DNA from: Escherichia phage vB_EcoM_PTE-Eco15
Length of the DNA: 64,000 nt
Direction: 5' to 3' (one strand)
Sequence record: PQ352352.2
Shown here: positions 24,166 through 24,893 of the stretch, in pieces
How the letters are laid out: every line of letters starts with the position of its first letter
Position numbering within the stretch: the stretch's first letter is position 1
The notes under the pieces: model-generated
Told to the model about the DNA's origin: nothing
Database searches by the model: none
What the model saw: only the letters and a program-made list of their open reading frames with translations
Program-made: the position numbers and the translations under genes

Positions 24166-24426
24166 ATGATTAACATCAATTCAAAATATTTAAATCGTCT
24201 AATAGATGGTATAAGGAAGCATACTAATAAGCAAGATAATCTTAATGTTATGGTAACAGGAGCTGAGCTCCTTCATAAGCTTTATCTTATAAGTGATACT
24301 ATATTAGCAATTAAACGAATTGAAAAACAATCATATCACAGTAATACAGATACGGTAATTACACTAGATGAAAGTGTCTGTAAATTACTAATTAAATTTG
24401 AGGAAGCTATTCGTGGAAATAACTAA
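24166..24426 (+). CDS. Hypothetical small protein, first of three tandem paralogs
   Basis: 86 aa ORF. Confidence 0.5.
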   Translation: MININSKYLNRLIDGIRKHTNKQDNLNVMVTGAELLHKLYLISDTILAIKRIEKQSYHSNTDTVITLDESVCKLLIKFEEAIRGNN

Positions 24427-24658
24427 AGATCAGTTTTATCTTCTTCAGGATAAAGTTAGCGAAATTTATGAAATTGCTCATGGTAAAAATCGTGAAACTG
24501 TAAAAATTGAATCTAGTAAGTTGATGCTTCAATTAGAAGAAATTGAACGAGATTTAATTGCGTTAGAATTCTTTTGTGGTGAAGTGAAAACTGTTACAAT
24601 CAATGATTACGTTTTAGGCGAAATTAGCTATCTTTATGAGGCGATTATTAATGATTGA
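24413..24658 (+). CDS. Hypothetical small protein, tandem paralog 2
   Basis: 81 codons from GTG; resembles paralog 3 (LEEIERDL vs LEEIQKDI). Confidence 0.5.
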   Translation: MEITKDQFYLLQDKVSEIYEIAHGKNRETVKIESSKLMLQLEEIERDLIALEFFCGEVKTVTINDYVLGEISYLYEAIIND

Positions 24659-24893
24659 ATTAAGTTGGTACCAGTTTAAATCTCTTATGGCAAATGTTAA
24701 AGCTGTCATTCAAGAAAATTCAGGACCTGATAATGTTACTATTCGCGAAAAAGCTTTAAAGATAGTATACAGTCTTGAAGAGATACAAAAAGATATTGAA
24801 TCTATGGCAAAATTTATTGATGAGCCTATTAATAAAGTTTATATTCAAGACTATACTGTAGGCCAAATTCGTGATTTAGCGAGGAAAATTTAA
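24651..24893 (+). CDS. Hypothetical small protein, tandem paralog 3
   Basis: 80 codons from ATG. Confidence 0.5.
   Translation: MIELSWYQFKSLMANVKAVIQENSGPDNVTIREKALKIVYSLEEIQKDIESMAKFIDEPINKVYIQDYTVGQIRDLARKI

Follow-up and report, generated by a model that had tools for sequence, protein, structure and literature searches.

Between the gene for the Dda DNA helicase and that for exonuclease A, Escherichia phage vB_EcoM_PTE-Eco15 (PQ352352.2) carries three small genes arranged head to tail. The locus raises the question of whether these genes are copies of one another and, if so, whether they record a recent amplification under selection or an older event. The window, i.e. the whole stretch of 64,000 nucleotides that was analysed, can be assigned to a Tequatrovirus on its sequence. 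In a DNA database comparison, positions 24100–24950 matched phages teqskov, teqsoen, JK1, and vB_Eco_EL at 100% identity, and 497 phage records reached at least 90%. The gene order on the + strand is modA, srd, dda.1, dda, the three small ORFs, and dexA. A preliminary description had noted three consecutive overlapping ORFs of 80–86 codons in this slot, and the ORF list agrees with it, the longest frames on the + strand being 24166–24426 (86 aa), 24398–24658 (86 aa, from TTG), and 24636–24893 (85 aa). The second and third genes most likely start further in, at GTG 24413 and ATG 24651, respectively, because these starts are annotated in T4 and Sf25, have a GAGG 9 nt upstream, and are exactly where the homologues in other genera begin. 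With these starts, the locus reads as follows.

22400–22431, + strand: putative middle promoter of dda.1-dda-ORF1-dexA.2-dexA.1, with TGCAAT at 22400–22405, a -10 element TAAAAT at 22419–22424, and a transcription start site (TSS) at about 22431 (promoter and TSS positions inferred from the TSS mapped in T4)
22532–22843, + strand: dda.1, 103 aa, heads the transcription unit (from the ORF list and from the way the homologous regions of AR1 and T4 are annotated)
22840–24159, + strand: dda, Dda DNA helicase, 439 aa
24166–24426, + strand: ORF1, 86 aa, pI 8.8, equal to AR1_017 and phrog_4967; Shine-Dalgarno sequence GAGG at 24158–24161
24413–24658, + strand: dexA.2 (ORF2; T4 Y00H), 81 aa from GTG, pI 4.4; Shine-Dalgarno sequence GAGG at 24400–24403
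24651–24893, + strand: dexA.1 (ORF3; T4 Y00G), 80 aa from ATG, pI 5.4; Shine-Dalgarno sequence GAGG at 24638–24641
24893–25576, + strand: dexA, exonuclease A, 227 aa, translationally coupled to dexA.1

ORF1 and dexA.2 overlap by 14 nt, dexA.2 and dexA.1 by 8 nt (ATGATTGA), and the stop codon of dexA.1 shares 1 nt with the ATG of dexA (TAATG). Each start in the chain has its own Shine-Dalgarno sequence within the preceding gene, and the three small genes form a translationally coupled chain leading into dexA. A consensus scan found no excess of promoter- or terminator-like sites across the stretch compared with shuffles, and Rfam in evalue mode gave no match within 22300–25700. In T4, dda.1-dda-dexA.2-dexA.1 is transcribed as one mainly middle-phase, partly NAD-capped transcript, whose single TSS lies 101 nt upstream of dda.1 (bioRxiv 10.1101/2024.04.04.588121). 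Over 22380–22540, the region of the promoter and 5´ UTR, the window agrees with T4 at 160 of 161 positions, so that the T4 transcription pattern probably applies here as well, and the earlier designation of these genes as early is imprecise.

The similarity first noticed between the second and third ORFs is borne out by formal alignment. DexA.2 and DexA.1 are 30% identical over 83 residues (BLASTP, E 3e-10), and the alignment covers the motifs LEEIERDL and LEEIQKDI that had been quoted in its favour. This is well beyond chance, and on these alignments the two are clear paralogues. They are ~96% and ~92% identical to their T4 orthologues, respectively, and correspond to genes that were annotated before as dexA.2 and dexA.1 and are not new. 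Both belong to Pfam family PF26837, as seen from cluster representatives 94–100% identical to them; the labels on these near-identical proteins were precomputed, and the local Pfam copy predates that model. Since the database relatives of DexA.2 and DexA.1 share one Pfam family, their paralogy is already on record. In ime09, the two genes are fused into a single one of 159 aa, which could be taken as a pointer to a heterodimer. The fusion is due to a single-base deletion in that record only, the junction is absent from IMG/VR, and it may be a sequencing error; we have not relied on it.

ORF1 had been described as the more diverged of the three, and this is an understatement as far as pairwise comparison is concerned. 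BLASTP finds nothing between ORF1 and DexA.2 or DexA.1 (E 21–22), the best pairwise match of ORF1 is the first-slot gene of phage VR25 (E 0.02), and a homologue search returned four close clusters and nothing further. The relatives of ORF1 are without a Pfam label, and by sequence it does not join PF26837. At the level of profiles and predicted fold, it nevertheless appears as a remote relative. Besides matching phrog_4967 (PHROG profiles, E 9e-59), ORF1 matches phrog_5263, as do the other two proteins (E 1.4e-5 over residues 1–81 for ORF1, 2e-7 for DexA.2, and 7.9e-4 for DexA.1), and its match is full length and of about the same strength as theirs. In hhalign, the ORF1 alignment against an 8-sequence family alignment gave E 1.2e-4 at a probability of 55%, collinear over 73 columns, a score not attained in any of 300 column shuffles. 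When the ORF1 sequence was run alone against the family profile, it scored 20.0 (probability 13%). In a null of 54 ATG ORFs from the window, an unrelated ORF at 39611–39940 scored 20.6, over 27 columns only. ORF1 is thus separated from these ORFs by the length of the alignment and not by raw score, and we do not rest the case on hhalign.

Predicted structures carry the comparison further. The AF2 model of ORF1 (pLDDT 83.5) has the elements E2-5, H6-22, H26-53, E64-67, and H69-83. Its input was the four near-identical sequences of ORF1 itself, with no DexA sequence among them, and two of the five models had a pLDDT of ~60. The model of DexA.2, made from 33 family sequences (pLDDT 95.3), has E2-4, H5-25, H28-55, E60-62, and H65-80. 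The order strand-helix-helix-strand-helix, which is the topology that defines the fold superfamily, is common to both predictions. When the ORF1 model was compared with BFVD by Foldseek, its own Sf25 orthologue came first and was followed by small proteins of T4-like phages, among them a PF26837 protein of fHe-Yen9-01 (TM 0.79/0.89, rmsd 1.8), a DexA.2 orthologue (TM 0.69/0.73), and the ime09 fusion. In the reverse direction, the DexA.2 model retrieved the Sf25 orthologue of ORF1 (TM 0.84/0.79, rmsd 2.2). The structure prediction that had been proposed as a check thus speaks for kinship, with the same order of elements in both models and reciprocal TM values of 0.69–0.84. Nearly all of the best BFVD matches are small T4-like phage proteins, and in the PDB no Foldseek match exceeded a probability of 0.35, what appeared being coiled-coil or designed-bundle noise. 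This argues that the fold match is specific to a family of T4-like phages rather than that of a generic helical bundle. All three genes of the window also share their setting, between dda and dexA on the same strand of a T4-like phage and within the coupled chain. Based on the predicted structures and the weak profile matches, we consider it very probable that ORF1 is a paralogue of DexA.2 and DexA.1. Because fold and context agree and the sequence comparison fails, we file it as a remote member of the fold superfamily and not under PF26837.

How old is the array? All three small genes are real protein-coding genes under purifying selection, with dN/dS values of 0.13 for ORF1, 0.10 for dexA.2, and 0.21 for dexA.1, compared with 0.020 for dda and 0.014 for dexA (mean dN/mean dS with overlap regions trimmed; up to eight tequatroviruses per gene, namely the window, T4, Sf25, KNP5, OE5505, ime09, RB14, and RB32). 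The constraint is 5 to 15 times looser than on dda and dexA, and there is no sign of positive selection in the pairwise whole-gene estimates. The copies are at most 30% identical, have a wide distribution among phages, are each under separate purifying selection, and have diverged in pI (8.8, 4.4, and 5.4), from which we conclude that the array results from old duplication followed by divergence and not from recent dosage amplification. Near-identical copies flanked by recombining repeats, as expected from a recent amplification, are not found; the variation between genomes is explained by deletion and frameshift. The proposal that the array reflects selection for dosage is therefore contradicted, the only recent events seen being losses. 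That of diversification fares better, in that the copies have diverged in sequence and charge, although this diversification is ancient and not recent.

The losses centre on ORF1 and involve the following segment.

24167–24395, + strand: segment with a 7-bp direct repeat at either end, TGATTAA at 24167–24173 and TAATTAA at 24389–24395 (the latter TGATTAA in RB14)

In alignment, T4 and RB32 show the same loss of 232 bp with an identical junction, being without the 222 bp between the repeats and a further 10 bp upstream. What is left in T4 is a remnant of 12 codons, MIKFEEAIRGNN, in which the ORF1 start codon is joined in frame to the last 10 codons of ORF1, and which still overlaps the dda stop codon and the dexA.2 start. 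As T4 keeps both ends of ORF1 and has the 7-bp repeats at the junction, the difference is a deletion in T4 rather than a gain in the window. In RB14, ORF1 is frameshifted independently by an 8-bp tandem duplication. The T4/RB32 deletion and the RB14 frameshift are the only recent events seen in the array. ORF1 is found in 308 phage records, all tequatrovirus-like, at 88% identity or more, and dexA.2 at >80% identity in about 496, which implies that roughly 60% of tequatroviruses have three genes and the rest two.

A comparison of copy number across related phages, which had been suggested as a further check, bears out that the slot between dda and dexA is variable, with 0–3 genes. Outside the tequatroviruses, it is occupied as follows.

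IME08 (Dhakavirus): 1 gene, DexA.1-like
VR25 (Gaprivervirus): 1 gene, phrog_5263
Mexia (Klebsiella phage): 1 gene, phrog_5263
CkP1 (Karamvirus): 2 genes, phrog_5263 and phrog_18278
TG1 (Tegunavirus): 2 genes, phrog_5263 and phrog_18278
Potts1 (Marfavirus): 1 gene, phrog_18278
Entb_45 (Kanagawavirus): 1 gene, phrog_18278-like
MIZ6 (Krischvirus): 2 genes, no sequence relation
AB-Navy4 (Lazarusvirus): 3 genes, no sequence relation
F2 and Aeromonas phage 31: 0 genes

The three slot genes of AB-Navy4, and likewise the small genes that follow dexA in Aeromonas phage 31, have no profile link to the family. In VR25, CkP1, TG1, and Mexia, the phrog_5263 gene is the first after dda. Its product may well have the same fold as the window proteins, judging from the BFVD model of the fHe-Yen9-01 protein (TG1_a-type), which both window models match. 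For phrog_18278, BLASTP gives no link to DexA.1, DexA.2, or ORF1. The Entb_45 protein matches the family profile at E 3.7e-4, and Foldseek gave TM values of 0.61–0.76 for Potts1 and an 80-aa CC31 protein (the phrog_18278 assignment of the latter being assumed from its size alone); this type probably shares the fold or superfamily of DexA.1 and DexA.2. When 1.84 billion representatives were searched exhaustively by HMMER with a profile of DexA.2, DexA.1, and P0069, 10 proteins came back. ORF1 was not among them, and nine are of the DexA.1/DexA.2 type, some as fragments. The remaining one, a 909-aa protein matched in four short stretches (E 3.4e-4), was taken as a spurious helical match and not counted as a member. 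Family entries labelled "E. coli" or "Shigella" lie on contigs of about 166 kb and hence in phage genomes, and the family appears from these searches to be confined to T4-like phages. Its strict placement between dda and dexA could mean that it serves DexA or Dda and not the host.

As to function, searches of Pfam, NCBIfam, and, by sequence and fold, the PDB revealed no characterised protein that resembles the three. An anti-defence role, raised earlier by analogy, would be one possibility; the features that touch on it, all of them indirectly, are small size, accessory status, variable copy number, and dN/dS values 5 to 15 times those of the neighbouring genes. The local copy of Pfam-A (predating PF26837) gave no match for any of the three proteins, NCBIfam gave sub-threshold noise far below the curated cut-offs (MinE, E 0.03; ESAT-6, E 0.02), and profile searches of the PDB found no relative, again with coiled-coil and designed-bundle noise only. 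The names "dextranase" and "exonuclease" that are attached to these proteins in many records find no backing in the domain content, the products of 80–86 aa showing neither a glycoside-hydrolase or nuclease domain nor a PDB relative, and were presumably propagated from the gene symbol dexA. Conservation across the family falls mostly on hydrophobic positions, and no catalytic motif can be recognised. DexA.2 has been detected as a protein in T4-infected cells, where the CBASS enzyme Cap2 was found to have joined it, through K5, to cGAS (PMC10097602). DexA.2 (Y00H) and DexA.1 (Y00G) are soluble on expression and were picked for study as proteins of unknown function without a homologue of known structure (PMC8076793). 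The literature on the two proteins gives no function for either.

We favour, on balance, a reading of the locus as an old paralogue array of small, non-enzymatic binding proteins. The array comprises three paralogous proteins of ~9.5 kDa, belonging to the DexA.1/DexA.2 family and its remote relatives and predicted to fold into a bundle of three helices, with a short sheet of two strands closing it. Occupying the variable slot between dda and dexA, the genes are probably driven together with dda.1 and dda by a single middle-phase promoter, and overlapping stop and start codons, each start with its own Shine-Dalgarno sequence, chain their translation into dexA. Ancient duplications were followed by divergence in sequence and charge, to a basic ORF1, a strongly acidic DexA.2, and a mildly acidic DexA.1, each kept by purifying selection, in an array that is dispensable and changes by loss, as with ORF1 in T4, RB32, and RB14. 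Each copy would most probably bind and modulate a protein partner rather than catalyse a reaction, and the differing surfaces suggest different partners or an assembly of the copies with one another. That the copies are non-enzymatic binders seems somewhat more probable than not, in view of their small size, lack of a catalytic motif, hydrophobic conservation, divergent charges, dispensability, and fast evolution. Small dispensable early and middle proteins of T4 generally have host or defence targets. This pattern, together with a copy number that varies and a loss of genes in some lineages, leads us tentatively to rank a host or host-defence protein first among possible partners and DexA or Dda second.

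Several other explanations have to be weighed against this one. The claim of three tandem paralogues holds by sequence for ORF2 and ORF3 and by profile and predicted fold for ORF1, for which BLASTP gives no support, and it could be argued that there are two paralogues only, ORF1 being an unrelated helical protein with a likeness in fold that is convergent or due to modelling bias. Three-helix bundles can converge, which counts against homology, and the hhalign probabilities, the similar raw score of an unrelated ORF, the missing Pfam label among ORF1 relatives, and a model built from four sequences, with two of five predictions at low pLDDT, are all in keeping with such an argument. It is improbable nonetheless, given the full-length phrog_5263 match and the collinearity from end to end, and given that a model built free of DexA sequences retrieves DexA-family proteins as its best non-self matches, and that the reverse search with the DexA.2 model retrieves an ORF1 orthologue. 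Length, order of secondary structure, and genomic slot are also the same as for DexA.1 and DexA.2. A tandem amplification of recent date, with dosage still being selected for in the style of counter-defence genes, is suggested by the head-to-tail arrangement and by the difference among close relatives in carrying ORF1 or dexA.2. We regard it as highly improbable, as the copies have diverged too far, purifying selection acts on each separately, and the difference between three and two genes goes back to the deletion in T4, with its repeats at the junction and both ends of ORF1 retained.

More serious is the idea that the small proteins are regulators or immunity-like partners of the enzymes encoded on the same mRNA, binding DexA or Dda so as to tune or restrain them, e.g. 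by protecting the phage's own hmC DNA from DexA or by adapting Dda and DexA to their partners. A modulator is conceivable, since DexA is able to cut phage DNA containing hmC and can change its quaternary state (PMC12153337). In every genus with sequence relatives, the family is found strictly in the slot between dda and dexA; it shares one transcript with dda (bioRxiv 10.1101/2024.04.04.588121), and is coupled to dexA through the TAATG of dexA.1, and DexA.2 is small and strongly acidic. On the other hand, F2 and Aeromonas phage 31 have intact dda and dexA and none of the small genes, copy number varies from 0 to 3, and the small genes evolve 5 to 15 times faster than dda and dexA, which is not what is expected of tight co-evolving partners. 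Many unrelated genes keep their order in this region, and synteny is accordingly weak evidence for a partnership. All in all, we find this explanation rather unlikely. One bolder possibility, which we put forward as a long shot, is that the slot is a diversifying cassette of small binders on one scaffold (phrog_1700, phrog_5263, phrog_18278, and phrog_4967), each copy neutralising a different host nuclease or defence effector, e.g. the bacterial DexA-like HREX exonucleases, which attack hmC DNA. If so, the three copies found here would widen the host range compared with the two of T4.

Whatever the partners of the old array, we are confident of the identity, history, and gene organisation of the three-gene dda-dexA locus. 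The array is ordinary accessory-gene variation, and what is new is modest: the family assignment of ORF1, the recognition that T4 differs by loss, and the annotation errors. The assignment concerns a gene (ORF1/AR1_017/RB14ORF15) that about 300 tequatrovirus genomes list as "hypothetical, no match", and T4 and RB32 with ORF1 deleted, RB14 with ORF1 frameshifted, and phages with three copies make up a natural comparison set.

Among known systems, pairs of a nuclease and its inhibitor come to mind, as in the colicin DNases and their immunity proteins Im7 and Im9. These likewise involve a small, acidic, helical protein of ~80–85 aa encoded next to a nuclease and co-translated with it. The window proteins have no match in fold or sequence to any solved structure, those of immunity proteins among them, and some phages have DexA without any of the small genes. 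In T4, the tifA region reportedly undergoes segmental amplification under ToxIN selection. Counter-defence amplifications of this type also concern small accessory genes with a changeable copy number, but they are recent, near-identical, and unstable, whereas the array in the window is ancient, diverged, and stable. The phrog_5263 genes resemble the window genes in their slot directly after dda and in their length (76–84 aa), and differ in being 13–35% identical to them and present as one copy per phage, sometimes followed by a phrog_18278 gene. The phrog_18278 genes, second in the slot of CkP1 and TG1 and alone in that of Potts1 and Entb_45, are like the window genes in slot and size. In T4 itself, DexA.2 (81 aa) and DexA.1 (80 aa) have the same position, overlaps, and start codons as in the window. 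There, two copies and a 12-codon remnant take the place of an array that in the window includes a third, upstream copy, ORF1, so that the dexA.2-dexA.1 pair of T4 represents a reduced form of the three-gene array.

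ORF1, the first small gene between dda and dexA, persists in T4 and RB32 as a remnant of 12 codons, recognised by comparison of T4 with window 24157-24426. The remnant reads ATG ATT AAA TTT GAG GAA GCT ATT CGT GGA AAT AAC TAA (MIKFEEAIRGNN). It starts with an ATG that shares bases with the stop codon of dda (GTATGA), and its 3´ end overlaps the GTG of dexA.2; the in-frame deletion may therefore have kept the translational coupling of dda to dexA.2. The RB14 gene carries an 8-bp tandem duplication (AAATATTT) close to its 5´ end that shifts the reading frame, and the annotated part of ORF1 in that record is a 58-aa remainder only (RB14ORF15). 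This is a second inactivation of ORF1, independent of the T4/RB32 deletion.

T4 locus (L002) 1889-1913, minus strand: ORF1 remnant
RB14 locus (L015) about 1490-1510: duplication, corresponding to window 24184-24191

The two downstream genes are joined in ime09, where a one-base deletion (GTTATTAATG to GTT-TTAATG) merges dexA.2 and dexA.1 into a single ORF of 159 aa.

ime09 locus (L014) 1748-2227: fused ORF, annotated dexA.1; deletion at window 24646

The fusion may be a sequencing error, because a search of IMG/VR for an exact match to the junction returned none. The PHROG family phrog_1700 is a profile of 160 positions, of which DexA.2 matches 1-80 and DexA.1 matches 77-159; both its length and these split matches are probably accounted for by the fused ime09 entry. 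The profile phrog_28922 (44 positions) appears to derive from truncated dexA.2 calls of the kind seen in AR1, where the gene is called from an internal ATG to give 44 aa (AR1 locus 3425-3559). Naming is also affected: "dextranase" is widespread for DexA.2 and "exonuclease" for both proteins, and one T6 entry is named "tail sheath stabilizer". None of these three names is backed by a domain.

A second small-protein family, phrog_18278, adjoins dexA in Karamvirus and Tegunavirus, with N-termini such as MLKVEN, MIRINE and MLRINE. Genes of this type, or resembling it, lie at four comparison loci:

L005 2634-2864
L008 2374-2604
L009 2383-2604
L019 2362-2604

The sole gene of the dda-dexA interval in Marfavirus is of this type, and by its sequence that of Kanagawavirus Entb_45 looks like another. 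The family is tied to DexA.1/DexA.2 only by a weak profile link (E 3.7e-4) and a weak fold link (TM 0.61-0.76), and may represent a fourth branch of the superfamily.

Further paralogous neighbours lie close to the array, downstream of dexA (window 26146-26685 and 26762-27250). A 179-aa ORF downstream of dexA, in the position annotated motB.1 in AR1, matches MotB (162 aa) over a C-terminal stretch of 32 residues (56% identity, E 2e-12) with the pattern CGW/YxTDQWxEDGVxLxNVV; both products are already named "MotB-like" in some records. Elsewhere, hhalign aligned part of a 109-aa ORF (window 39611-39940) with the profile of the DexA family (27 columns, score 20.6, probability 12%), which we took as a chance match.

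Several distant T4-like phages each give two Foldseek matches in BFVD with neighbouring or close UniProt accessions:

Aeh1: Q76YD5/Q76YD6
phiAS5: E1A2I8/E1A2I9
Acj9: E5EPF5/E5EPF6
Cronus: A0A2S1GM34/A0A2S1GM42

Judged from the closeness of these accessions for predicted models, there are hints that tandem pairs of the same fold exist far beyond Tevenvirinae.
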